A DNA stretch of 64,000 bases. Source: Patescibacteria group bacterium (lineage in GTDB: Bacteria; Patescibacteriota; Patescibacteriia; SG8-24; DYFX01). The DNA lies in the NCBI GenBank assembly GCA_041659045.1, contig JBAZZB010000002.1, forward strand, positions 231,412 to 295,411. Direction: 5' to 3'. The notes beneath the pieces are model-generated. The model did not search any database. It saw only the letters and a program-made list of their open reading frames with translations, and was not told the origin of the DNA. Below, in pieces: positions 2,961 through 28,159 of this stretch. The stretch's first letter is position 1; every line of letters starts with the position of its first letter. The position numbers were made by a program, and so were the translations under genes.

Positions 2961-3032
2961 ACTCACCCCCCTACCCCCTCTCTTTCAGAGAGGGGGTTTT
3001 GGTATCTGGAATCCTCCCCTGAAAGGGGAGGT
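2960..3032. repeat. approximately 75-bp repeat element, copy A (two hairpins: CCCCCTCTCT-TTCA-GAGAGGGGG and CCTCCCCT-GAAA-GGGGAGG)
   Basis: About 90% identical to the reverse complement of 27175-27247. The element starts immediately after the vanW-like stop codon. Confidence 0.6.
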
Positions 3033-3059
3033 GGCCGAAGGCCGGAGGGGTCTTAAACA

Positions 3060-3096
3060 AAAAAACCCTCGACATACGTCGGGGGTCTTTTTTTCT
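3060..3096 (+). terminator. intrinsic terminator (A-run, CCCTCGACATACGTCGGGGG hairpin, T-run)
   Basis: A GC-rich hairpin at 3066-3085 is flanked by a 5' A-run and a 3' T-run. It belongs to the CGAC-NTAN-GTCG hairpin family seen at four loci. Confidence 0.5.
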
Positions 3097-13532: not shown

Positions 13533-14176
13533 TCTTCTTCCTCCTCTCCATCACGATCGACTTCGTGCAAGTAGCGCGAGATCTTGATCGGACCGACACC
13601 CTTGCCGAACGTCTCGTGTGGGAAGCGCACTTGCACCGCCTGGTCCCGATCGTTGGGCTGGTAGGCGTCCCAGGTAATGCCGCGCGGCAGAAAGCCTTCG
13701 AGCACTTGGCGCAGAAAGTTGTACTGAGGCTCATCAAACGGGTCGGTCATGCCGTCGCGCATCATGACGTACAGCACCGGCGTCGGATCAAGTTCGTCCC
13801 AGTTGAGGTCGTAGTCCGTCAGGCAATTGATCATCGGCCCGTTCAGGCTGTCATGCCCAAGCAGGTAGAGATCGATCATAAACGGACCAAAGTACACCGA
13901 GCAGCAGAGTGGAACCGCGTCGAACCGCGTGATCTTGCAATCATCGTAGATGTAATCGATCGCGGCGTAGCTCTCGTCCCCAAACGGGTGCTCCCCATCT
14001 TCAAACGCAAAGGCGTAGGTGGGAGGCTCGCTGTTCGGGAAACGCATCATGGCGCGCTGGTAGAGCGTCCGAAGGATGGCAAACGCCACTTCGATAACCT
14101 TCGGCAGATCGAACTTCGGGCCGTCGGCAATGACCGTGTCATTGTCGAGTTCGCGGAGCTTCTTCAGCATGATCAC
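13529..14176 (-). CDS. hypothetical protein, tandem paralog A (C-terminal RFPHETFGKGVGPIKI, poly-Glu tail)
   Basis: 215 aa. The start is preceded by AAAGGAG. It is a paralog of the downstream ORF. Confidence 0.5.
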   Translation of the reverse strand: MIMLKKLRELDNDTVIADGPKFDLPKVIEVAFAILRTLYQRAMMRFPNSEPPTYAFAFEDGEHPFGDESYAAIDYIYDDCKITRFDAVPLCCSVYFGPFMIDLYLLGHDSLNGPMINCLTDYDLNWDELDPTPVLYVMMRDGMTDPFDEPQYNFLRQVLEGFLPRGITWDAYQPNDRDQAVQVRFPHETFGKGVGPIKISRYLHEVDRDGEEEEE

Positions 14177-14216
14177 TCCTTTGTCTAAGGTGCCGCGTCC
14201 AGCATCGTCTCCTCCG

Positions 14217-14245
14217 CTTGAAACGTCAAGAGATTACAGGTACTT
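14217..14245 (+). promoter_or_regulatory. smc promoter (TTGAAA-N17-TACTTT)
   Basis: The sequence reads TTGAAAcgtcaagagattacaggTACTTT. It is divergent from the promoter of the minus-strand paralog pair. Confidence 0.45.
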
Positions 14246-14270
14246 TAAGGAGGTAATAGCCGCTTTCCCC

Positions 14271-16577
14271 ATGTATCTCCAGCGCATCGAAATGCAGGGT
14301 TTCAAGACGTTCGCCAACCGCACGGTTTTGGAATTCCTCCCCCCGAAAGAAGGCAACCGCGGCACAACCGCGATCGTCGGCCCGAACGGCTCCGGTAAGT
14401 CGAATATCGCTGACGCTGTCCGTTGGGTGCTGGGCGAGCAATCGCTCAAGCTCCTGCGCGGTAAAAAATCGGAAGACGTCATTTTTAGCGGCTCCGAAAA
14501 ACGCTCGCGCTCCGGGTTCGCCGAAGTCTCCTTGGCACTCAACAACGAAGCGGGCGGCAACGATATTGAATATCCGGAAGTTGTCATCACGCGCCGTATC
14601 TACCGCGACGGCGAATCGGAATACCTCATCAACAAGAACAAGGTGAAGCTGCAGGAAGTCATCCTGCTTCTTGCACGCGCCAACTTCGGACAGCGCACCT
14701 ACTCCGTCATCGGCCAAGGCATGATCGATGCGATCCTCGTCGCTTCGCCGAAAGAGCGCAAGGAGTTTTTCGATGAAGCTGCGGGCGTGAAGCAGTATCA
14801 ACTCAAGCGCGAATCCGCCGTCCGCAAGCTCGATGCTTCGGAAGAAAACTTGAAGCAGGCCGAACTCATCCTCGCCGAAATCGAACCGCGCATGCGTTCG
14901 CTCTCGCGCCAGGTCCGCCGCTTGGAAGAGCGCGCCAATCTTGAAAAAGAATTGCAGGAACTTTCAATCCTCTACTTCGGCACGCAGTGGAAACAGATTA
15001 GGGAAGAGATGGCCGCAATCGACGCCAAAACGAAGCTCGTCGAAGAAAGCCGCAAAGCCAAGGAAAAGGAAATCGAAGCCATCCGCGCCGAGCTCGCCGG
15101 CATGGAAACAGAAGAAACGAAATCCGACGGCTTGATCGCACTCCAGAAGGACTACGAGAAAGAGATGGAAAAGCGCAACAGTTTGCGCGAGAAAGAAATC
15201 CAGCTCAAGAACCAAATTCGGATGGAGCAGATGAAGGCACAGGCGGCCAACGCACCGGCGCTGCCCATGCCACTCCCCCGCATCGTCGAAGAAGTTTCCT
15301 CGATCTCAAAGCGTCACGACGAACTTGTCGCCTCGATCATGGGCGCGAAAACGCTCGAGCAGGCGCAGCAAGCGGCGCGCGAACTTGAAAAGCTCGGCAA
15401 GCAAATTGAAGAACTGCTCTCGGAACTCCGCGAACCCGGCCACAAGGAAAAGCAGGAAAAGAAGGAACCAACGGTTCCGGTTGCGATGCAAAAGGAGCTC
15501 GAGGAAACGCTCGTCGCCATCTCCGAAATGGGTAAAACGCTGACGGACCTTCAAGGCCAAATGCAGCGTTGGGGCCAGGAAGAGGCCAAAAAGCGTGGTG
15601 CCTTCTTCGAGATTCAGCGCAAGATGCAAGGCTTCCAGTCAGAACTCTTCGAACTCGACCGTCACCTCTCCGACCACCGTGTCGAACGCGCGCGCATCGA
15701 AACCCGCCGCGAAACCATCGAGCGCGAAGCGCGCGAAATGATGGGTGAGGAAGCTCAAGCCGCGCTTGCCGCCGAACCGAAAGAGAAGGTCGACGCATTA
15801 ACTCTCTCCCCTCGCCTCCACCAACTCCGCACGCAAGTCGCCGCGATCGGCTCGATCGATCAAGCCGTCGTCGACGAATATAAGGAGATCAAAGAACGCT
15901 TCGACTTCCTCTCCGGACAAGTCGAAGACCTGCACAAAACGAAAGCTTCTCTTGTGGTGATGATCGAAGAGCTCGACATTCTGATCAAGAAACAATCGGA
16001 CGCATCGTTCCGTCGCATCAACCAGCACTTCGGAGAATTCTTCAAACAACTCTTCGACGGCGGCACCGCTTCGCTTGAGAAAATCGAGCGCGAAGAGGAT
16101 GAAGATGAAGTCGCCGATGCCGAAAAAGCGGCCGCCGCGGAAGCTGCAGGCGTCGAAGAGGAAGAAAAGAAGGAGGCCGTCTCCGCCGTGCCGAAAGAGT
16201 CCTGGCTCGGTCTCGAAATTTACGCGAACCCTCCGGGCAAGCGCGTGAAGTCGATCCATTCACTCTCCGGCGGCGAGCGCGCCATGACATCGATCGCGCT
16301 TATCTGCGCCATCATGACGACGAACCCTTCGCCCTTCGTAGTGCTCGACGAAGTCGACGCCGCGCTCGACGAATCGAACGCCTCGCGCTTCGCTGCGATC
16401 ATCGACGAACTCTCTCACAAGACGCAGTTCCTCGTGATCACGCACAACCGCTACACGATGCAGAAGTCGCAAGTGCTCTACGGCGTCACTATGGGTGAAG
16501 ATTCAACATCGAGCGTTCTCTCGCTCCAGCTCGAAGACGCGGAACGCATTCGCGGACAGAAAACCGTAACGGTGTAA
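14271..16577 (+). CDS. smc: SMC-family chromosome segregation ATPase, unusually short (768 aa) with a reduced coiled coil and no evident hinge
   Basis: The N-terminus MYLQRIEMQGFKTF...IVGPNGSGKSNIADAVRWVLGEQS carries the Walker A motif. The C-terminus LSGGERAMTSIALICAI...FVVLDEVDAALDE carries the signature and Walker B motifs. The upstream 65 codons of the track ORF are likely not translated. Confidence 0.75.
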   Translation: MYLQRIEMQGFKTFANRTVLEFLPPKEGNRGTTAIVGPNGSGKSNIADAVRWVLGEQSLKLLRGKKSEDVIFSGSEKRSRSGFAEVSLALNNEAGGNDIEYPEVVITRRIYRDGESEYLINKNKVKLQEVILLLARANFGQRTYSVIGQGMIDAILVASPKERKEFFDEAAGVKQYQLKRESAVRKLDASEENLKQAELILAEIEPRMRSLSRQVRRLEERANLEKELQELSILYFGTQWKQIREEMAAIDAKTKLVEESRKAKEKEIEAIRAELAGMETEETKSDGLIALQKDYEKEMEKRNSLREKEIQLKNQIRMEQMKAQAANAPALPMPLPRIVEEVSSISKRHDELVASIMGAKTLEQAQQAARELEKLGKQIEELLSELREPGHKEKQEKKEPTVPVAMQKELEETLVAISEMGKTLTDLQGQMQRWGQEEAKKRGAFFEIQRKMQGFQSELFELDRHLSDHRVERARIETRRETIEREAREMMGEEAQAALAAEPKEKVDALTLSPRLHQLRTQVAAIGSIDQAVVDEYKEIKERFDFLSGQVEDLHKTKASLVVMIEELDILIKKQSDASFRRINQHFGEFFKQLFDGGTASLEKIEREEDEDEVADAEKAAAAEAAGVEEEEKKEAVSAVPKESWLGLEIYANPPGKRVKSIHSLSGGERAMTSIALICAIMTTNPSPFVVLDEVDAALDESNASRFAAIIDELSHKTQFLVITHNRYTMQKSQVLYGVTMGEDSTSSVLSLQLEDAERIRGQKTVTV

Positions 16578-16585
16578 AAGAAAAA

Positions 16586-16615
16586 GGCCCCGATCACATC
16601 GGGGTCTTTGCGTTT
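16586..16615. terminator. bidirectional terminator (GGCCCCGATcacATCGGGGtC plus TCTTTGCGTTT)
   Basis: The hairpin is at 16586-16606 and serves smc on the plus strand and the Cys-rich gene on the minus strand. The module ..PYR-stop-AAACGCAAAGA-hairpin recurs at 17077 and 18581. Confidence 0.6.
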
Positions 16616-17021
16616 AGCGGTACGGATACGCCGGGAGGCCGGTGCCGCTTTGATGCGCGAGCTTGAGCTTCAAGAGCGGCATGGCATCGTCGAAAGAACC
16701 CAGGTGCGGCAACTCCACGCCGAGAAGCTTGGCATCCGGTTGCGCGGAGAGCTGCCCGCAGCCGTCGCAGACATACGCCGGCGAATACCAGGAACAGCCA
16801 CGCGCGTCAGCAACGTCCTTGACCAGCTCCCACAGCGTGAGAAGTCGGCGTCCACAGCATCGATACTCAACGTGCGCCGAGCTTTCCGTGGCGACAGCCA
16901 CCAAGCCGGCATTGCTGGCGCGGGCTTCGTCGACAGACACGTGATCGAGCTCCAACACGCGCAGCCCGGACGCTTCCAGCATGCGGGCAATTCTTGTCTC
17001 TGACATAAAGACCTCCTTCAT
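16614..17021 (-). CDS. hypothetical Cys-rich protein (CxxC..CDGCG zinc-ribbon-like), C-terminal ..AYPYR
   Basis: 135 aa containing the motifs YRCCGRR...YVCDGCGQL. Its 3' end is conserved with the 18609..19223 ORF and with the fragment at 17108..17221. Confidence 0.5.
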   Translation of the reverse strand: MKEVFMSETRIARMLEASGLRVLELDHVSVDEARASNAGLVAVATESSAHVEYRCCGRRLLTLWELVKDVADARGCSWYSPAYVCDGCGQLSAQPDAKLLGVELPHLGSFDDAMPLLKLKLAHQSGTGLPAYPYR

Positions 17022-17076
17022 TGAGCCGACGTTAGCATTGGCTGCTGAGCTTGTCCAAAAAAATTCGGAAATAAAA

Positions 17077-17103
17077 CGACGGCCCGAGAGGGTCGTCTTT
17101 GCG
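17077..17103 (-). terminator. terminator hairpin CGACGGCCCgagaGGGTCGTC (minus-strand sense followed by TTTTATTT)
   Basis: It is a paralogous copy of the terminator module. It sits downstream of the gene fragment and not of a full gene. Confidence 0.5.
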
Positions 17104-17107
17104 TTTA

Positions 17108-17221
17108 GCGATACGGGTCCACCCGAAGATCGATGCCGCTACGATGCGCACGCTTGAAGAGCAGACGTACGGTATCGCTGTCGTCCTTCCAGCCGGCGAC
17201 GGCTTTGAGGAACTCGCGGGC
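17108..17221 (-). pseudogene. decayed 3' fragment of a Cys-rich family gene (..AGWKDDSDTVRLLFKRAHRSGIDLRVDPYR-stop)
   Basis: The 38-codon frame ends in DPYR plus a stop and is followed by the same terminator module. It is bounded upstream by an in-frame stop at 17222-17224. It shows about 70% nucleotide identity to the 3' end of the 16614..17021 gene. Confidence 0.4.
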
Positions 17222-17299
17222 TCACCAAGAATTGACACGCGAACGTTTTTCTGCCAGACTCCCACGTTCGCATCCCAGACCTTTCTCCGGAGGAAACTG

Positions 17300-17695
17300 A
17301 TGAAGATCGTGACCGTGACCCGCACAGAATTCGAAGGCCAGCCCGAAGGCTTCCGCTCCTTCTTCCACGGCACCCTGCCAGACGGCCGTCATGCCGTCGT
17401 GCTCCTCTCCAAAGATGCACGTGCCTACGGCGATCTGGAGCGCGCGTCATACTATCGGGTCTACGTCGGCACGCCCGAGCAACTCGACGAGATCACCGTC
17501 ACGCATGCCCTCACGTACCGCGGCAAGTCCGTGATGCTGCACTGCGGCATCGAACGACGGTTGTGTGTCCCCTTGGTGCGTGCCGCGGACGATCCGTTGC
17601 CTGATCCCAACAGCCCGAATGCCGCGCGTCTCGAGCGGGATCCGATCCAAGTCCTCAAGACCGCCGTCTTTCCGCCCGTTCCCGATCAGAAATGA
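17300..17695 (+). CDS. hypothetical protein
   Basis: 131 aa starting MKIVTV, preceded by GGAGGA with a 7-nt spacer. The promoter TTGACA-N17-CAGACT lies at 17232 and a terminator CCGCCC..GGGCGG plus CTTTT follows the gene. Confidence 0.5.
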   Translation: MKIVTVTRTEFEGQPEGFRSFFHGTLPDGRHAVVLLSKDARAYGDLERASYYRVYVGTPEQLDEITVTHALTYRGKSVMLHCGIERRLCVPLVRAADDPLPDPNSPNAARLERDPIQVLKTAVFPPVPDQK

Positions 17696-17751
17696 AACCG
17701 CCCACCGCTTTGCGCGGAGGGCGGCTTTTACATTTCGGAAATCCGATCAGA

Positions 17752-18561
17752 CTATTCCTTTCCGCCTTTGTTCCAACCGCTGAAGGCCTTGAGGATCTCA
17801 AGCGGAACCGTGAACACGACGGTGTTCGAAGCGTCCGACGAGATGTCGTTGATCGAGTTCAGCGTGCGCAGATGGAGCGCGCCGGGTGTCTCGCCGAGGA
17901 GGCGCGCAGCGTTCGCCAGGTTTTGCGCGGCGGCGACTTCGCCTTCCGAGTTGATGATGACGGCGCGGCGTTCACGCTCGGCTTCAGCTTGCTTGGCGAT
18001 CGTACGGACCATGTCGGTCGGCAGGTTGATATCCTTGAGTTCAACCGTCGTGACTTCGACGCCCCAGCCGCTCGTGGCGTGATCGACGATCTTCTCAATC
18101 TTCTCCGAGATGACCATGCGCTGCGAGAGGAGTTCGTCGAGCGTCACTTCGCCGACAATGTTGCGCATCGTGGTTTGCGCGAGCTGGAGCACGGCGTAGT
18201 CGACGTTCTGGATGTCGATCACCGCTTTGGCCGGATCGCTGATCTTGTAGTAAATGACGGCGTTCACCTTGGCCGAGACGTTGTCCTTCGTGATCGCGTC
18301 CTGCGGCGGGACGTCGACGGCGCGCAGACGCATGTCGACTTTGGTCATCGACTGGAACACCGGGATCACAAGACGCCAACCTGGTTCAGCAACATTCGAA
18401 AAGCGCCCCATCGTGAAACGGACACCGCGCTGGTACTGGTTGATCTGCCGAAGACATGCGAGCAAGAGACCGATGATGACGATGAGCGGGAATCCTCCGC
18501 CCAAAAGAAGGTCAATCATATGTGTAGACGTGAAGGAATAACGATGCCGCGAGGATAACAC
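17752..18561 (-). CDS. SPFH/band-7 (stomatin/HflK-like) membrane protein
   Basis: 269 aa with an N-terminal TM helix. A full-length SPFH domain is present. Confidence 0.85.
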   Translation of the reverse strand: MLSSRHRYSFTSTHMIDLLLGGGFPLIVIIGLLLACLRQINQYQRGVRFTMGRFSNVAEPGWRLVIPVFQSMTKVDMRLRAVDVPPQDAITKDNVSAKVNAVIYYKISDPAKAVIDIQNVDYAVLQLAQTTMRNIVGEVTLDELLSQRMVISEKIEKIVDHATSGWGVEVTTVELKDINLPTDMVRTIAKQAEAERERRAVIINSEGEVAAAQNLANAARLLGETPGALHLRTLNSINDISSDASNTVVFTVPLEILKAFSGWNKGGKE

Positions 18562-18580
18562 GCAGCCGTGGAAAATAAAA

Positions 18581-18606
18581 CGACGACCTCGCGGGGTCGT
18601 CTTTGC
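18581..18606 (-). terminator. terminator hairpin CGACGACCtcgcGGGGTCGTC plus TTTGCGTTC
   Basis: This is the third copy of the ..PYR-stop plus hairpin module. Confidence 0.5.
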
Positions 18607-18608
18607 GT

Positions 18609-19223
18609 TCAGCGGTATGGCTCATCGTCAATCGTCTCGCCGAGCCGATTCTTCACCGAAAGCAGTTGCGAACGTAGCGTGTCGCGGCGATGATCTATGT
18701 CCGCGACTTGCTTCTCCAAGCGCTTCTTTCGTTCCGCAAGTGGTTCTTCCGATTGATCCGATCCGCGCTTCATTCGGGCCAGGAAGTCGGAGAGGTCGAC
18801 AGCCCCTTGCCAGGCGAAGCGGATACGCATGGGCGCATCCCATTCATCGCTATGCAAGCGGTGACAATGCGCGCAGACGTTTCCGAAATCGACAAGGGTT
18901 TTGCCATCCATGAAATCTTCGGTTCTGCACAATCGATACACGGTTCCACAACAGGCACCGCAATTGATTCCCGAACGCGCCACGAAAGCCACGTCGTCAG
19001 GCTTCAAGCGATGCACGTTTGGCTGCCGGTTCGGAAACCAGATGAAGCCGACCTTTTCGAGCTGTCTCACGACATCCAGTGCGGGATCCGCCGCGCTGAC
19101 GAGACGGAGCTGAAGCCTCTTGCGCCGAAGCGCGTACTGTCCGGAGACAAACGCGATCAGCAGAGAGATAACACTAACTGCGAGCGTTTCCATCAGAACC
19201 TCCCCTGTAATGGAACGGCGCAA
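18609..19223 (-). CDS. hypothetical membrane-anchored Cys-rich protein with a C-terminal coiled coil, ending ..DEPYR
   Basis: 204 aa with an N-terminal TM helix. The Cys cluster CGACCG...CAHCH is followed by a charged coiled-coil region. Confidence 0.5.
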   Translation of the reverse strand: MRRSITGEVLMETLAVSVISLLIAFVSGQYALRRKRLQLRLVSAADPALDVVRQLEKVGFIWFPNRQPNVHRLKPDDVAFVARSGINCGACCGTVYRLCRTEDFMDGKTLVDFGNVCAHCHRLHSDEWDAPMRIRFAWQGAVDLSDFLARMKRGSDQSEEPLAERKKRLEKQVADIDHRRDTLRSQLLSVKNRLGETIDDEPYR

Positions 19224-19257
19224 TGTATCAGGGGGCGTGCCTTACGTCAATATAAAA

Positions 19258-19285
19258 GGACGACCCGTGAAGGTCGTCTGTGTAC
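19258..19285 (-). terminator. terminator hairpin GACGACCcgtgaaGGTCGTC
   Basis: It belongs to the same GACGACC stem family and sits downstream of the 19305..20060 ORF. Confidence 0.5.
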
Positions 19286-19304
19286 TGACAGGGCTGTGAT
19301 CCGA

Positions 19305-20060
19305 TTATCCCTTGTCCGACGTCGTCTCCCCATCGGGCTGGAGCGGCGTGCCGCGGAAGGGTTCGACGTCGGTGCGGAGCCGCAGCTCGCCATCGAGTCG
19401 CTCGATCTCGCGCTCGATCGCTTCGAGCTCCGGACACAACCGACGATGCTCCGCGCGAAGTCGCACGAGTCGCTCGGCTTTGAGGCCGCCGGGATCCAAA
19501 CACTCCTGGTCTTCGAACCAGCGCAGGATGTTCCCGACGCCGACGAGTGCGCTCGGCGGACAATCCCAAGGACTCACGACGATCTTGCCGCATGAACTGC
19601 AGCACCGGAAGCACGACTCGATCACCTGGCTGGTCGTCTTGTCTGCTTTCCGCTGTTGCACGACCTGCGTGACCCAGTAGCCGAAGCCGTCGCAGTAGAG
19701 GCACGCCTCGTCAGGAACGGCGAAGCACCTACCGATCTGCGCAGATTCGTTCCGCTGGAACAGCATGCTGAGCGTGGTCAGGCGACCCGGCCCCTCTTGG
19801 AACCAAGCGCCTTCGCCCGTGATGAACTCTCCCCCACGACCATCAGTCGTGATGATCGTGAACCCGTGCCGTTCGAGGCGTTGCTCGAACGCGTCCAAGA
19901 ACTGCGTGCTCTTGTTCGGTTCGAACGGCGACGGCGGCAACGGGTGCCGAGTTCCGTCGACGAGCTGCTCCTTCTTCGGCCTCGTGATGAACCAGATCGC
20001 CGCGGCGATGAAAGCCATTGCGGCAGCAAGACCAAGAATCGGTTGAAGAACGTACAGCAT
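19305..20060 (-). CDS. hypothetical membrane-anchored Cys-rich protein with a C-terminal coiled coil
   Basis: 251 aa with an N-terminal TM helix. The Cys clusters are ACLYCDGFG and CFRCCSSCG. The start is preceded by AAGGAG, which lies inside the end of the upstream micro-ORF. Confidence 0.5.
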   Translation of the reverse strand: MLYVLQPILGLAAAMAFIAAAIWFITRPKKEQLVDGTRHPLPPSPFEPNKSTQFLDAFEQRLERHGFTIITTDGRGGEFITGEGAWFQEGPGRLTTLSMLFQRNESAQIGRCFAVPDEACLYCDGFGYWVTQVVQQRKADKTTSQVIESCFRCCSSCGKIVVSPWDCPPSALVGVGNILRWFEDQECLDPGGLKAERLVRLRAEHRRLCPELEAIEREIERLDGELRLRTDVEPFRGTPLQPDGETTSDKG

Positions 20061-20062
20061 CT

Positions 20063-20203
20063 CTACTTCTCCTTGTTGGAGTTGCGTGACCGCTCATCGC
20101 GGCGTGCGAGCGCGATCACGAGAGCAACCAAGAGCACGACAGCAATGATGATGCCGAGCGAGACATGGACGACATCGGACTCCGTGATGGTAATACCGTC
20201 CAC
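20063..20203 (-). CDS. hypothetical small TM protein (46 aa), co-transcribed with the 19305..20060 ORF
   Basis: GTG start preceded by GAGGAGG. It translates VDGITITESDVVHVSLGIIIAVVLLVALVIALARRDERSRNSNKEK. Its stop lies 2 nt before the next start. Confidence 0.35.
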   Translation of the reverse strand: MDGITITESDVVHVSLGIIIAVVLLVALVIALARRDERSRNSNKEK

Positions 20204-20375
20204 GGTGAACCTCCTCGTGGCTTCTGTATGACGGGCAAGACGTGCTCCGCCTCCCGATGTCGGGATACGACACGATGGCATGAAAAATCGATTTTCGTCA
20301 AGATGCATCTCTTGCGAAAGGATCGGGCGCAGTACGAGATAAAAAATCCGACCGTGCCAGGAAGACAGCGGTCGG

Positions 20376-20993
20376 TCAGGCGGCGGACGGACCAGGATCG
20401 GGTTCTTGATCCGCGGACGTGACAGGTGGATCGACCACGAGACTGAGGACGCGCCCACCCTTCTTGGGGGTCGGCTTGCTCGTCAGTTCGCCAGAGGCGA
20501 GCTTGCTGCGGAGCGTGGACACGGACTCGAGACCCTGCTTCAGCAAAGCCTCCGTCTCGTCGAGCGCACAAGCGATCGCAACGTGCTCACGACCTTCTGC
20601 GGGAACGCCGTCGAACACCTTGAGGGCTTCGATCAGATTTCCGCGCTCCACGACGATGTGATGAAGCACACCCACATCCTCCATGAGGTTGTTGTGGTAG
20701 ACGACTCCGCAGTAGGCGCACACGAGGCACAGATCATTGATCTCCACCTCGCTCTCGTACTCGAATTCCGGCTCATGAGGAACGATCTCCTCCAGGAAGA
20801 ACAGGGGCTTCTCGCACGGAACGCAGTACATCGTCGAGCAGCCTTCACCTCCATGCAGATGCAACTCGCCGAGACGTTCTGGAGTCGGGCGCAGGCAGGC
20901 GAAGCTCACGATGAATCCAACTTCGCGCAACCGCCGCACGAGTGGAGTCTGCTCGTACTTCGTACCGGACACCTGTTCGTTTTGATCGGTCAA
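20376..20993 (-). CDS. hypothetical Cys-rich protein (CSTMYCVPC...CLVCAYCG)
   Basis: 205 aa with a TTG start preceded by AAAGGAGG. Its zinc-ribbon-like motifs resemble those of the 16614..17021 family. Confidence 0.5.
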   Translation of the reverse strand: MTDQNEQVSGTKYEQTPLVRRLREVGFIVSFACLRPTPERLGELHLHGGEGCSTMYCVPCEKPLFFLEEIVPHEPEFEYESEVEINDLCLVCAYCGVVYHNNLMEDVGVLHHIVVERGNLIEALKVFDGVPAEGREHVAIACALDETEALLKQGLESVSTLRSKLASGELTSKPTPKKGGRVLSLVVDPPVTSADQEPDPGPSAA

Positions 20994-21178: not shown

Positions 21179-21472
21179 ATGTTGTCCATCCGCCTCTCCC
21201 GCGTCGGCAAAAAGAAGATGCCGTCCTACCGCCTGATCGTCACCGAAAAAACCCGCGACCCGTGGGGCAAGGTGCTCGAACAGCTCGGCACGTACGACCC
21301 GCTCTCCAAGCCACGCAAAATCGCGTTCGACATCGAGCGCGTAAAGTACTGGATGTCGAAGGGCGCTCAACCGTCCGCGACCGTCCATAACATGCTCGTC
21401 GATCTCAAAGCGATCGAAAGCGAAAAAACCAAGGCGCACCCGACTCACAAAGTCACCGCCGAGGAAAAGTAA
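21179..21472 (+). CDS. rpsP: 30S ribosomal protein S16
   Basis: 97 aa. The N-terminus MLSIRLSRVGKKKMPSYRLIVTEKTRDPWGKVLEQLGTYDPL matches bS16. No Shine-Dalgarno sequence is visible. Confidence 0.9.
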   Translation: MLSIRLSRVGKKKMPSYRLIVTEKTRDPWGKVLEQLGTYDPLSKPRKIAFDIERVKYWMSKGAQPSATVHNMLVDLKAIESEKTKAHPTHKVTAEEK

Positions 21473-21593: not shown

Positions 21594-22148
21594 GTGGAAT
21601 CCAAAGCCCTTACGACCCTCGCGCCGCTATCGCTTGTCCCGACGTCTTCGATGCCGCGGCACAAAGGCAAGGAGCTTGCGGATCTCGTTTGCGCGCGTCG
21701 CAACGAGATAGGAAACGCCCTCGTGCATGCCGGCGGCGCCATCGGGCTCGCCTTCTGCGGCGCCTTTTGCGGATTCATGGCGGCCCTCGGTTTCGTCTAT
21801 CCGTTCTTCCCAATGTGGTACTTCCTCATCACGCTGACCGTCTGCTTGTTCTCATTGCTTGGTGCCGGCGTGATGGTCAGTCTCGTCGTCAACGACGTGT
21901 ACGCGTTTCGCAGGAAGAAGATTCCCCCAACGCTTCAATCTGAGGCCGCCGAAGAGGCGCGGCTGCTCGAAGCCGCATGGGAGCTCAATAGCCAGATCAT
22001 GGAGTGGAACGAATCCGCCAGACGCGCGGCCTCTGAAACGGAGATCGAACCGGTCTACACCGAGCTCCTTCACGCGAAGCGTCGCAAACTCGCGCGCCTT
22101 CGAGATGGGGCTCTGGCCTACCTCGAATGTTCGACCAAAGATCCATAA
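21594..22148 (+). CDS. hypothetical membrane protein (2 TM plus C-terminal coiled coil), tandem paralog 1
   Basis: 184 aa starting MES.., with its own promoter (TTGACG at 21529) and terminator (GATCCataacGGATC plus T-run). It has the same length and architecture as the 22221..22775 ORF. Confidence 0.5.
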   Translation: MESKALTTLAPLSLVPTSSMPRHKGKELADLVCARRNEIGNALVHAGGAIGLAFCGAFCGFMAALGFVYPFFPMWYFLITLTVCLFSLLGAGVMVSLVVNDVYAFRRKKIPPTLQSEAAEEARLLEAAWELNSQIMEWNESARRAASETEIEPVYTELLHAKRRKLARLRDGALAYLECSTKDP

Positions 22149-22220: not shown

Positions 22221-22775
22221 ATGGAATCCACCTCGCTCGTACTCTTGCCGCGTCTGGAATTGATCGGTGCGGAAACACTCCCTTCGAAAGACCGCCGCGA
22301 ACTGGCGATGCGTACCGAGCAGCAGCGCTTTGTGGAAAAACAGCTGGCCTCCGCTATCGGACTCACATTTCTCTCCGGCGTTTTTACGATGATCTACGGA
22401 ACGATTCTGTTCTTTTCATGGGGCCACGCGCTGTTTTCCCCAATCTTCTCCGGTATCATGCTTCTCGCCGCCCTGTCGGCAACGTACATCATGAGCAACG
22501 TATCCGTTCGACTCCAACGCTCACTGCGAGTGGAGAGAGTGCCAGCCAAGCTCGTTGAGCGGGCGGCGGCGGAGAACGCCTTGTGCTCGCTGGCAATCGA
22601 TGTCGATCACTATGCTTCCAACTGGAACAACGCGGCCGCTCACGTCGAAGCGCTGAGCGAACCCGATCCGGCGCTCCTAGAACGTCTTCGGAAACACCGC
22701 AAAGTTCTTGAAGCCAAGCAGCGGGAGCTTCGGCAACTTGCGAAGCGTCTCGAACGCATCAACAAGACCTCTTGA
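22221..22775 (+). CDS. hypothetical membrane protein (2 TM plus C-terminal coiled coil), tandem paralog 2
   Basis: 184 aa starting MES... The promoter is at 22169 and the terminator AAGACCtcttgaagGGGTCTT plus T-run follows. Confidence 0.5.
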   Translation: MESTSLVLLPRLELIGAETLPSKDRRELAMRTEQQRFVEKQLASAIGLTFLSGVFTMIYGTILFFSWGHALFSPIFSGIMLLAALSATYIMSNVSVRLQRSLRVERVPAKLVERAAAENALCSLAIDVDHYASNWNNAAAHVEALSEPDPALLERLRKHRKVLEAKQRELRQLAKRLERINKTS

Positions 22776-26010: not shown

Positions 26011-27156
26011 ATGGCGCTAACGGAGCGACAACAGGTCCTCGATCAACTTCGGACGTCCGAGCGTCCCCTGATCGTTTTCCGCAAGGATTGGAACCCCGAC
26101 ACCGCCGCATCGGCCGTGGCGCTCGCCGTTGGTTTGGAAAGCGCTGGCAAGAAATGCGAAATCGTCTGCGACGGTTTTGCCGCGCCGGAGCATCTTGGAT
26201 TTCTCCCCCAACTCAAGCGCGTACGCCCGGAAATCACCGCGCTACGCACCTTCGTTATTTCCGTCGACACGCAGAAGAGCCGCATTGGCGAACTCTCGTA
26301 TGAATCGAAAGACGGTTTTTTGCACATCTACCTCACTCCGAAAAACGGCACGCTTGAAGCCGAGCATGTGAAGACCGGCACGACCGAGTACCGTCACGAC
26401 CTGATCATCTCGATCGATACCCCGGACCTCGCCTCGCTTGGCGCCGTGCGCGACGTCGCTTCCGATTTTTTCTTCCGCACGCCGATTTTGAACATCGACC
26501 ACTCAATCGCCAACGAGCGCTACGGCCAAATCAACAACGTCGAATCGACAGCCGCCTCAACCAGCGAAGTCGTCTACCGCTTACTGCGCGAACTTGATCG
26601 TCCGATCGACGCCGATCTTGCCACGGCACTACTCACCGGCATCGTTTCCAAAACGCGCAGCTTCAAGTCCGGCGCCATCACGCCACAGACGCTTTCCGCG
26701 GCTTCTGAACTTGTCGCCGCTGGCGCTCAGCGAGATCTTATCGTTTCAAGTCTTTACCGCACGAAGACGATTCCCGTTCTGCGCCTCTGGGGTCGAGCAC
26801 TGGCACGCCTCAAATTTGATTCGACGCTCAAGCTCGTTTCGACCGTGCTGACGCGGCAGGACTTCACCTTAGCTGGTGCCGGAGAAGCTGCTCTGCCGGA
26901 CGTGATCGATGATTTGATTCTCTCCTCACCGGACGCCGAAACAATCGTCTTGATCCACGAACGCGAGGATGGACATATCTGCTGCCTGATCCGCAGCGAC
27001 ATCCGCCGCGACGCCGACACACTCACCGCGCGCTGGGAAGGCGAGGGTGGCCACACGCAGTCGCGTTGCTTCATCAAGGGGAAAACGCCCGCTGAGGCCG
27101 AACAGGAAATCATGGCGCATGTCAGAAATGAGATGCAGAAGACGCGGGCTCTCTGA
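26011..27156 (+). CDS. DHH-family protein, degenerate NrnA paralog (DHH replaced by IDHS; the GGH DHHA1 motif is retained)
   Basis: 381 aa starting MALTERQQ. The upstream TTG at 25957 belongs to the -35 box TTGACG and is not a start codon. The architecture matches the 11791..12807 gene. Confidence 0.6.
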   Translation: MALTERQQVLDQLRTSERPLIVFRKDWNPDTAASAVALAVGLESAGKKCEIVCDGFAAPEHLGFLPQLKRVRPEITALRTFVISVDTQKSRIGELSYESKDGFLHIYLTPKNGTLEAEHVKTGTTEYRHDLIISIDTPDLASLGAVRDVASDFFFRTPILNIDHSIANERYGQINNVESTAASTSEVVYRLLRELDRPIDADLATALLTGIVSKTRSFKSGAITPQTLSAASELVAAGAQRDLIVSSLYRTKTIPVLRLWGRALARLKFDSTLKLVSTVLTRQDFTLAGAGEAALPDVIDDLILSSPDAETIVLIHEREDGHICCLIRSDIRRDADTLTARWEGEGGHTQSRCFIKGKTPAEAEQEIMAHVRNEMQKTRAL

Positions 27157-27174
27157 CCCCTCCGCCCTGCGGGC

Positions 27175-27247
27175 ACCTCCCCTTTCAGGGGAGGATTTTA
27201 ATTACCAAAACCCCCTCTCTGAAAGAGAGGGGGTAGGGGGTGAGTCA
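27175..27247. repeat. approximately 75-bp repeat element, copy B (inverted relative to copy A)
   Basis: Its reverse complement reads GACTCACCCCCTACCCCCTCTCTTTCAGAGAGGGGGTTTTGGTAattaaAATCCTCCCCTGAAAGGGGAGG. It abuts the stop codon of the minus-strand 27245..28159 ORF and lies between convergent genes. Confidence 0.6.
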
Positions 27248-28159
27248 GTATGTCGTCTCGATTGGCCTGACAATGCGAAGCGTGTGGCTCTGCGTGCTCT
27301 CCCCAGTTTCACTCTCTCCAAGCGCGTACACCGTCCAGGCTTGAAACCCTTTCGGGATCGCGAGCGTCCACGTTTGCTGACCTTCCAATTCGCTTGCCAG
27401 CGTTGCCTGTCCGAGTTCGTATGGTTGCGACCCGGGATTGTGCGGATACTCCGTCGCCAGCACACGAACCCTGGCGAGGCCGCGACTCTTCACTAAAAAC
27501 ACAGAGTCAGGATAGTAGTTGTGCGTCGTGTATTCCCACTTCGACGGCGTGACGTTCAAAAGATCAATCTGCACGTTCGTGTTCCAATCGCTCGGATCCG
27601 CTTGGCTGACCTCACCCGCCGCGACGCTCACGAGAATCGGCGAATGATTTTTGCACGTTTCCAATTTTCCGCACTTCACGTGCTCAGACCAATACGCACG
27701 CTTGCCACTTTCATCATCCACGCGAGTGGCATACACCCAATAGTTGCCCGGCTCGGCCGCAATCACAAACTCGGTCGCGCCATTGATCGTTTGCTGACAA
27801 AATACTTTTTCACCCTTCTCGAGATTTGCAGCGCACACACGTTGCGCTGGAACGCTCACCCCTTCAGGTGCGGAAATGCGTCCTACAATGGTGCCGCTTC
27901 CTGCACCACCCGCACAAGCAATTTTTGTGCAGCTCCAGCCGGTCGTGCCACACGTGCACACGTTACAGCCGTCATCTGCTTGGCGCTGCTCGCTTTCATG
28001 ATACGTCTGCCCCTGGTAGTCGCAGCTGAGCACGCCTGCAGCATAGGTTACGCCTCGCAAACTTAGCACCGCTTCTTTCACGGGGTGATACCCGAAATAG
28101 ACAAGCAGCGCGAAAAGCGCGATGAGAACGTATTTGCGCAAGAGGGCGATCATGCCCAC
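27245..28159 (-). CDS. hypothetical secreted Cys-rich protein, co-transcribed with malic enzyme
   Basis: 304 aa with an N-terminal signal anchor and a Cys-rich N-terminal region (CDYQ..CNVCTCGTTGWSCTKIAC). It begins 8 nt after the malic-enzyme stop. Confidence 0.5.
   Translation of the reverse strand: MGMIALLRKYVLIALFALLVYFGYHPVKEAVLSLRGVTYAAGVLSCDYQGQTYHESEQRQADDGCNVCTCGTTGWSCTKIACAGGAGSGTIVGRISAPEGVSVPAQRVCAANLEKGEKVFCQQTINGATEFVIAAEPGNYWVYATRVDDESGKRAYWSEHVKCGKLETCKNHSPILVSVAAGEVSQADPSDWNTNVQIDLLNVTPSKWEYTTHNYYPDSVFLVKSRGLARVRVLATEYPHNPGSQPYELGQATLASELEGQQTWTLAIPKGFQAWTVYALGESETGESTQSHTLRIVRPIETTY

Follow-up and report, generated by a model that had tools for sequence, protein, structure and literature searches.

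Repeated gene 3′ ends in a probable tandem array of zinc-ribbon-like genes between rpsP and smc of a Patescibacteria genome

The variable surface lipoprotein loci of Mycoplasma and Borrelia are tandem arrays of fast-evolving paralogues in reduced genomes. A locus that shares several of their features (clustered paralogues, high divergence, varying gene number, conserved non-coding flanks, and pseudogene remnants) lies between rpsP and smc in a metagenome-assembled Patescibacteria genome (NCBI locus tags WC866_047xx; contig of 319,851 bp; GC 57.5%), from which a stretch of 64,000 nucleotides, hereafter the window, was analyzed. The interval is bordered by rpsP (plus strand, ending at 21472) and by the convergent smc gene (14076-16577, plus strand); its minus-strand order, read from rpsP to smc, is p205, a 46-aa protein, p251, p194, an SPFH gene, a gene remnant, and p135. 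Several of these genes end in a repeated 3′ module made up of their last codons, a spacer, and a hairpin. We consider it likely that the interval is a tandem array of independent transcription units for a clade-restricted zinc-ribbon family, reshaped at the joints between units. The core of the feature is ordinary biology, namely paralogues that keep their terminators; its setting is a hypervariable array of a single family.

Repeated terminator–promoter joints

Three minus-strand frames end in the residues PYR, as an earlier reading made from the sequence alone had reported: p135 (16614..17006), the remnant (17108..17221), and p194 (18609..19193). The stop codon of each is followed by AACGCAAAGAC, whose reverse complement, the 11-mer GTCTTTGCGTT, is found at three sites in the 64 kb (16604, 17095, and 18599). 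This spacer sequence is absent from the rest of the window and from the flanking sequences of the related loci, which come from seven metagenomic genomes (L014, L015, L017, L019, L020, L074, and L147, some of which cover the rpsP side only). The sequence-only reading placed the PYR ends correctly, but the starts had to be moved to ATG 17006 for p135 and ATG 19193 for p194; GGAGG precedes each corrected start, and the corrected products match database proteins P0014 (130 aa) and P0001 (194 aa), respectively. That reading had also placed a hairpin of the GACGNCC type behind all of these ends. Such a hairpin does follow the remnant, p194, and p251 (19305-20060), but not p135, whose hairpin is CCCCGAT-gtg-ATCGGGG, a predicted bidirectional terminator in common with the convergent smc gene. 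The pattern GACGNCC-N3-8-GGNCGTC occurs in the window only at 17078, 18582, and 19259, compared with 0.05 occurrences expected by chance, and no GACGNCC hairpin was found outside the arrays, either in the window or in the flanks of its relatives.

The copy of the module next to smc (16578..16616) consists of a stop codon, the spacer ACGCAAAG, the hairpin at 16588-16604, and a T-run, and serves p135 and smc in common; on the plus strand its spacer reads GTCTTTGCGTTT, a U-rich tract after the hairpin for the smc transcript. This tract is kept at the smc end in L014, L015, and L019. The copy itself is orthologous in L014 and L019, and the last array gene of L015 carries the same spacer with a different hairpin. 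The second copy, together with the p135 promoter, spans 17022..17107 (minus strand): the remnant's stop TAA (17105-17107) is followed by ACGCAAAG, the hairpin GACGACCC-tctc-GGGCCGTC (17078-17097) with one A-C mismatch, a T-run, and the predicted -35 and -10 boxes TGGACA (17052-17057) and TAACGT (17029-17034). The third copy (18568..18611, minus strand) comprises TGA, the ACGCAAAG spacer, the hairpin GACGACC-ccgcga-GGTCGTC (18582-18601), and a T-run, and leads into the promoter of the SPFH gene. Behind p251, the joint at 19222..19278 (minus strand) joins a terminator hairpin (GACGACC-ttcac-GGGTCGTC, 19259-19278, -18.8 kcal/mol) and its T-run to the predicted p194 promoter (-35 TTGACG, 19245-19250; -10 TACATT, 19222-19227); from the hairpin to the -35 box it is identical in L014. 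The p205 terminator (20348..20375, minus strand; CCGACCG...CGGTCGG plus T-run) has a folding energy of -18 kcal/mol and a z-score of -2.8. Its stem is kept in L014, L017, L019, and L020, with a CCGATC variant in L015, and its loop varies.

One syntax describes the joints of all arrays: a stop codon, often ACGCAAAG or a variant of it differing by 1-2 bases, a GC-rich hairpin of 7-8 bp, and a T-run that merges into TTGAC(A/G), followed after 17 nt by a -10 box TAnnnT and then by GGAGG and a start codon. Every array gene has its own predicted TTGACR-17-TAnnnT promoter and GGAGG ribosome-binding site. Folding energies of the hairpins range from -11 to -19 kcal/mol; the stems, of 7-8 pairs, start 9-40 nt past the stops, and U-runs stand directly 3′ of the stems (GTTTTATTTT, GTTTTATTTC, CCTTTTTCTTTT, and CTTTTATATT). 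At the sequence level, the joints show the features of a terminator to which a promoter is fused.

The similarity of the modules exceeds that of other terminators in the window. Among 65 terminator-like sites compared as 52-nt windows (2068 pairs), background pairs scored 7.9 on average (sd 2.6), with a 99th percentile of 17; module pairs scored 32 (p194-remnant), 21, 21, 19, and 18, and a repeat search of the window aligned the four 3′ ends as one repeat family. Since the module pairs outscore background terminator pairs, the likeness noticed in the sequence-only reading is not the general likeness of terminators in this DNA. Twelve GACGNCC-type joints from six genomes were also aligned, with 500 shuffles as a control; 98.8% of the cells are paired and three of the seven pairs show compensatory changes, a result that none of the 500 shuffles reached. 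The hairpin is under selection for pairing. The sole unpaired cell among the twelve joints belongs to the remnant's hairpin, a mismatch that fits a terminator no longer serving a gene.

Folding in the sense direction pairs AAAG of the spacer with the U-run and lengthens the stem. The spacer ACGCAAAG is plausibly the mirror U-tract of a bidirectional terminator, and its internal copies may have been inherited from the bidirectional form. Querying a genome collection that did not include the source genome with TAYCGCTRAACGCAAAGAC returned 12 single matches in unrelated taxa, which is about the chance level. A hairpin-pattern scan of metagenomes returned 120 loci, mostly unrelated because GACGACC hairpins are generic; only L074 held a family member.

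Other repeated terminator modules are present in the window, and repeated terminators are therefore not unique to the array locus. A double-hairpin repeat of ~90 nt stands at ~2967-3060 (plus strand) and ~27150-27240 (minus strand), with the copies ~93% identical and in opposite orientation. Its hairpins are CCCCCTCTCT/AGAGAGGGGG and CCTCCCCT/AGGGGAGG, and the copies begin right past the stops of different genes (1044-2960 and 27245-28159); by its sequence it looks like a terminator module of the repetitive extragenic palindrome (REP) or miniature inverted-repeat transposable element (MITE) kind. A further hairpin family, CC(C/T)CTCGAC(A/G)TA(C/T)GTCG(A/G)G(A/G)GG flanked by A-/T-runs, occupies three unrelated intergenic sites, at 3065 (plus strand), 51928 (minus strand), and 57054/57079 (both strands).

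A narrow family of zinc-ribbon-like proteins

The array genes encode one homologous protein family, as the sequence-only reading had proposed from their Cys clusters. Neither pairwise BLAST nor hhalign gave significant matches between the window paralogues, and homology emerged only through intermediate members from related genomes. A hidden Markov model (HMM) was seeded with the p205 orthologues, which are present in all related loci at 52-74% identity, and iterated over 1011 open reading frames (ORFs) drawn from the window together with five related loci. All genes recruited by it lie in the rpsP-smc interval, and each scored E<1e-3 before inclusion (p194, 2.8e-4; p135, 6.5e-4; L014 p255, 2.4e-4; the p251 clade, 1e-11 to 1e-15); the best ORF outside the arrays reached E=0.34. 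All members share the same collinear sequence elements, and the four Cys of two CxxC knuckles, ~25-35 residues apart, are invariant in family alignments of 7 and of 18 sequences. p205 (20376..20993, minus strand), a fifth member that the sequence-only reading did not list, is soluble and is the first gene of the array, beside rpsP.

AlphaFold2 models of p205 (mean predicted local distance difference test score 77, core >90) and p194 (mean 82.5) predict the same topology: a helix, three or four strands bearing both CxxC knuckles, a short helix, and a long helix. The strands that flank the CxxC motifs are placed at residues 63-72, 83-92, and 97-101 of p205 and at 70-77, 84-94, and 97-107 of p194. 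An additional N-terminal hydrophobic helix (residues 2-33), followed by RRKR, is indicated for p194 by both model and sequence. The family architecture can be summarized as an optional N-terminal membrane helix with basic residues, an RxLExxGF helix, a beta-sheet with CxxC...CxxC, a short helix, a long helix, the motif RTDxxP[YF]R, and a disordered tail. Two of the proteins had been described as membrane-anchored with C-terminal coiled coils; N-terminal hydrophobic helices, the predicted membrane anchors, and C-terminal long helices are indeed present in p194 (18609..19193, minus strand) and p251 (19305..20060, minus strand). Two window members have no membrane helix.

No family match was found in Pfam, NCBIfam (E<=1), PADLOC, PHROGs, or PDB sequences. 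With Foldseek, the two models compared with the PDB, and the p205 model compared with viral structures, reached best E values of 0.08-0.6, which are not significant, and resemblances to phage tail-terminator proteins among them were weak and likewise not significant. A tblastn search of phage genomes with p251 and a protein-pattern scan of metagenomes returned no match, and a literature search found nothing relevant. Across 1.84 billion representative proteins, HMMER returned 17 matches at E<=1e-3, some of them repetitive Cys-rich false positives. The family is thus very narrow, lineage-specific as had been suggested, previously undescribed, and known so far only from relatives of this Patescibacteria genome. 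A possible relationship to HicA toxins, considered for the likeness of LExxGF and the strands, was dropped for lack of profile or fold support.

All-against-all BLASTP divides the family into at least six subfamilies and several orphans. Subfamily 1, which includes p205, is soluble, ends in PPAA, and is present in every genome whose contig covers the array start. Subfamily 2, which includes p251, is membrane-anchored; the p251 orthologue P0003 is 74% identical to it. Subfamily 3 carries the motif LWDRLEDAGF and ends in GTQTI, subfamily 4 ends in MYY, subfamily 5 includes p194, P0026, and L019 p144, and subfamily 6 includes L014 p255 and L019 p282. The orphans are p135 with the remnant, L019 p102, and L019 p274. 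The alignment of p205 orthologues shows seven invariant Cys in subfamily 1 (C33, C52, C57, C60, C89, C92, and C95), a pattern that suggests a second metal site beside the ribbon. At the extreme C-terminus of this subfamily, D-P-x-P-P-A-A is conserved after a disordered linker. A distant member, P0023 (376 aa), holds two tandem copies of the entire domain in one polypeptide.

The PYR ends are part of RTDxxP[YF]R, a peptide motif of the family that lies where the long helix ends. In subfamily 2 it takes the form R-T-D-x-x-P-[FY]-R-[GD] and is followed by 16-30 more residues; in p251 it reads RTDVEPFR and is internal, with a 16-aa tail. The variants in this subfamily are VEPFRG (p251), APYRD (L015 p260), DPFRG (P0019), and DPFRD (P0022), and the motif is also internal in L019 p274 (SPYRD) and L147 p254 (DPFRG). 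Subfamily 5 stops at the motif (DDEPYR in the window, GPPHR in P0026), and the chain also ends there in p135, the remnant, L019 p102 (SIYR), and L147 p73 (GMYR). P[YF]R thus recurs across genomes in subfamilies 2 and 5 and in orphan members and is kept in orthologues; it is absent from subfamilies 1, 3, and 4. In L019 p144, a shortened member of subfamily 5, the codons CCG TAT survive past a premature stop and before the hairpin, and the module is therefore ancestral to that subfamily. A likeness of PYR to the C-terminal peptides of FtsZ and SSB was considered and dropped for mismatched spacing.

A Cys4 site, together with basic residues that follow the membrane helix, makes a cytoplasmic location probable, with some members membrane-tethered and others soluble. 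Zinc binding is likewise probable; the modeled long helix probably mediates oligomerization, and RTDxxP[YF]R is probably a docking motif for a partner.

Turnover of the interval and the gene remnant

The gene content of the interval differs between related genomes, in line with the local turnover suggested by the sequence-only reading, and ranges from one to eight family genes. The window contains four in addition to the remnant, the SPFH gene, and a 132-aa gene; within the interval there are three in L014, four in L015, and eight in L019. L020 has at least four, followed by an SPFH gene, L147 at least three, and L074 one seen. The related genomes are not very close, and the family proteins change far more quickly between them than those of housekeeping genes. 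Between the window and L015, smc, ClpP, and DHH have synonymous divergences (dS) of ~0.7-1.3 and ratios of nonsynonymous to synonymous change (omega) of 0.03-0.1, with smc at 92% protein identity and omega 0.07, compared with 66% identity (omega 0.24) for subfamily 1 and 32% identity for subfamily 2. Between the window and L014, family omega is 0.25-0.28, and the smc 3′ end has 100% protein identity. The sequence-only reading had attributed the locus to recent duplication; in general this fails, with at least six subfamilies shared between genomes at the housekeeping dS of ~0.7-1.3, and it holds only for the remnant, which with the p135 tail looks like a comparatively young duplicate.

Breakpoints between the window and its nearest relative, L014, fall at the joints. 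The two are collinear by blastn at 21233-19246 (77%) and at 16617-16302 (95%); between these blocks, the window has 2.6 kb and L014 has 805 bp with one different paralogue (p255). The breakpoints coincide with the -35 box past the p251 terminator (19246) and with the stop codon of the gene adjacent to smc (16617). The variable segment of the window (16618..19245, minus strand) contains p194, SPFH, the 132-aa gene, the remnant, and p135.

The joint sequences appear decoupled from the orthology of the genes that precede them, in that the joint most similar to a given one usually follows a gene other than the orthologue. The window joint behind p194 (subfamily 5) matches the L020 joint after p224 (subfamily 3) at 41 of 41 nt, hairpin loop included, and SPFH lies downstream in both; over a longer stretch (18447-18612 compared with L020:10620-10785), there is 84% identity across the joint, the promoter with an extended -10 (TGTTATCCT), and the first SPFH codons. 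All three joints of L147 have in common a lineage-specific G-C stem variant. Compared with L014 (1924-1930), the window has ~28 extra nt between the p251 stop and its hairpin (19279-19304); with the hairpin included, this insert (..CACAGCCCTGTCAGTACACAGAC) shows a weak likeness to the PYR-stop-spacer module (63% over 51 nt), of which it may be a degenerate copy. In the joint after the subfamily 2 gene of L019 (1960-2075), a palindromic insertion of ~95 nt (TTTTGTCATCCCGA...TCGGGATGACAAAA) stands between the terminator and the next promoter and is possibly a miniature inverted-repeat element.

The remnant (17108..17221, minus strand) corresponds to the 3′-terminal 38 codons of a paralogue resembling p135, ending ..IDLRVDPYR. 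It reads AREFLKAVAGWKDDSDTVRLLFKRAHRSGIDLRVDPYR, lacks a usable start codon, and is directly preceded by an in-frame TGA; it had rightly been recognized as a decayed duplicate. It is 79% identical to the p135 3′ end over 63 nt (score 61, against at most 31 in 200 shuffles), and the two tails match at 50% identity by BLASTP (E=0.004). To the p194 module, spacer included, it is 85% identical over 52 columns (80% over 51 nt in the repeat search), and it is thus a mosaic of a p135-like coding tail and a p194-like hairpin. A full standard joint with the p135 promoter comes after it. The remnant is the leftover of a complete unit formerly located upstream of p135; the 5′ part of this unit was lost where the 132-aa gene now begins on the opposite strand, and a rearrangement that brought in or inverted the 132-aa gene would have left the remnant behind. 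p135 itself (16614..17006, minus strand; 130 aa from ATG 17006) is soluble and ends ...AYPYR-TAA, and p194 ends ...IDDEPYR-TGA.

The remnant lies within the region upstream of the 132-aa gene (17297..17695, plus strand), which has a GGAGG ribosome-binding site before its ATG. This gene has a bidirectional terminator at 17701-17724 in common with the SPFH/Band 7 gene (17752..18519, minus strand). The 132-aa protein has no relatives in Pfam, NCBIfam, PADLOC, or PHROGs, or in phage genomes searched by tblastn, and its gene is absent from L014, L015, and L019. The SPFH gene sits inside the array and outside the protein family; it matches Pfam PF01145 at E=3.9e-40 (138 bits; gathering cut-off 23.6). 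Upstream of p251, a small membrane protein of 46 aa (20063..20203, minus strand) has its stop only 2 nt ahead of the p251 start, a gap that makes translational coupling of the two probable. A counterpart of 44-47 aa precedes the next family gene in L014, L015, L017, L019, L020, and L147.

Genes neighboring the array include rpsP, a KH-domain gene, Amidase_6, DHH, and smc. Two adjacent 184-aa membrane proteins (21594-22148 and 22221-22775, both plus strand) are old paralogues of one another (25% identity, E=1e-9) with no known family in Pfam or NCBIfam; L015, L017, and L020 have one gene of 183-205 aa where the window has these two.

Alternative readings and comparison with known systems

On the array reading, the module would be the end of a unit: the P-Y-R codons, the stop, the A-rich spacer ACGCAAAG, and a GC-rich hairpin with its U-run, an intrinsic terminator of the bidirectional type that would lead straight into the next -35 box. 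Units would have multiplied by duplication of a gene together with its terminator, which would account for the likeness of the copies, and selection for pairing would have kept the terminators as the coding sequences diverged fast. The repeated joints would also offer short homologies at which units may be lost, gained, converted, or replaced, with short-homology recombination or gene conversion between joints as the putative driver. The identity of the p194 and L020 joints, the common variant in L147, and the decoupling of joints from orthology point in this direction.

Several considerations weigh against this interpretation. The identical runs between joints are short (16-26 nt), and joint recombination is for this reason plausible rather than proven; vertical inheritance with independent deletions could also put breakpoints at joints, and selection for termination alone would keep the stems similar. 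Conservation of ACGCAAAG goes beyond the needs of a terminator, is explained only in part, and may reflect a further role. Termination and promoter activity are read from sequence, zinc binding, membrane topology, and the role of the motif are predictions, and the comparison draws on about eight related loci, most of them on short contigs.

The alternative that fares best, possible if doubtful, is that ongoing gene conversion keeps the modules alike and that the joints have been selected as cassette-shuffling sites, a recombinase-independent analogue of an integron. Joint similarity that is independent of the subfamily of the upstream gene, the common variants of the L147 joints, breakpoints exactly at joints, and the mosaic module of the remnant would all be expected under this hypothesis. 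However, joints are often closer across genomes than within them (window p251 and L014 p249; window p194 and L020 p224), and selection for termination with slow compensatory evolution suffices to explain the conservation. There is also no recombinase gene in or near the array, and the units, unlike integron cassettes, all carry promoters of their own.

It seems unlikely that PYR-stop is a functional C-terminal signal, such as a degron or a sorting or docking tail, that fixes the last codons and the nucleotides next to them. Ends with an aromatic residue and Arg do recur (p194, p135, the remnant, L019 p102, and L147 p73, with PPHR in L147 p193), and the motif is kept among subfamily 2 orthologues. 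The sequence-only reading had asked whether the PYR tail is a conserved C-terminal signal; the conservation is real, but a role as C-terminal signal is not upheld, because the motif is internal in most homologues, with 16-40 residues after it (subfamily 2, L019 p274, and L147 p254). Moreover, several members lack the motif, and selection on the protein would leave the conservation of the untranslated spacer and hairpin unexplained.

A more far-reaching proposal, which we regard as rather unlikely, is that the array is a recombinase-independent cassette system whose joints are selected as exchange points and whose proteins act in conflict or partner recognition through RTDxxP[YF]R. If this cassette reading were true, the lineage would be swapping, duplicating, and deleting members of a family with an apparently new fold, cytoplasm-facing and in part membrane-tethered, and the fast diversification would reflect conflict or partner recognition, for example against phage or in dealings with a host cell.

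It is improbable that a small terminator element of the REP or MITE kind, repeated or mobile, inserted independently behind unrelated genes. Hairpin modules that recur between genes of no apparent relation do exist in the same genome, but the genes upstream of every copy of the array module are homologous, and the similarity reaches into the coding tails, over 63 nt between p135 and the remnant. The spacer and GACGNCC hairpin are confined to the arrays, and there are no target-site duplications and no terminal inverted repeats apart from the hairpin itself.

That the proteins are zf-HC2-type anti-sigma factors or related membrane signaling proteins, a role tentatively suggested by the sequence-only reading, is very improbable. 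The array proteins resemble these factors in having a single membrane helix and a Cys/His metal site, but they have a Cys4 site rather than HxxxCxxC and the opposite order of elements, with the membrane helix first and the ribbon after it. Two window members have no membrane helix, neither zf-HC2 (PF13490) nor any other Pfam or NCBIfam family matched at E<=1, and neither the window nor the related loci have a sigma factor gene next to the array. Finally, Patescibacteria are rich in diversity-generating retroelements, and the remnant, a non-coding near-copy beside the 3′ end of a gene with a hairpin downstream, has the geometry of a template repeat, with the p135 3′ end as variable region and the hairpin as homing structure; this scarcely credible reading was rejected on the mismatch spectrum, in which the 13 mismatches cover all types and in neither copy are restricted to adenines, and further conflicts with a copy that runs past the stop into the terminator, with the standard p135 promoter after it. 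No gene with a reverse-transcriptase Pfam match is among the called genes of the syntenic loci (the ORFs of the window were not all profile-scanned).

Patescibacteria have small genomes with many genes of undescribed role, and this locus is a clean example of how variation is made in them: one interval flanked by housekeeping genes is rebuilt between relatives, and its punctuation of terminators and promoters stays fixed. A compact family with confident models and no known relative is tractable for structural and interaction work. For genome scans, the locus also serves as a calibration, in that a repeated sequence at gene 3′ ends can reflect ordinary terminator inheritance and no special signal. 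If the joints are preferred recombination sites, they would provide a simple model of cassette turnover without a dedicated recombinase.

The comparison with described systems sets out what is particular to the array. In contrast to the Mycoplasma and Borrelia loci, its proteins appear to face the cytoplasm and have no lipobox or signal peptide, and there are no phase-variation repeats or invertible promoters; each unit has an intact promoter. Integron cassette arrays are similar in their single-gene units with short imperfect palindromes at the 3′ ends, and in a unit content that varies between relatives with breakpoints at the palindromes. However, no IntI tyrosine recombinase lies beside the array, and the joint sequences contain no RYYYAAC/GTTRRRY attC cores; the palindromes are instead short terminators with U-runs, and the units, each with a promoter and ribosome-binding site, encode one protein family. 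An integron array was rejected on these grounds. The predicted ribbon agrees with C4 zinc ribbons in its two CxxC knuckles at beta-hairpin turns, but is embedded in a larger helix-sheet-helix domain unmatched in Pfam, NCBIfam, and the PDB, to which subfamily 1 adds three conserved Cys. With bidirectional intrinsic terminators, the joints share a GC-rich stem of 7-8 bp, a loop of 3-6 nt, an immediate U-run, and an A-rich tract 5′ of the stem that mirrors the U-run, as well as the position of the smc copy between convergent genes. Unlike ordinary intrinsic terminators, the array reuses the same stem and spacer behind several paralogues and across genomes, and its U-run is fused to the next -35 box in a compact terminator-promoter joint.

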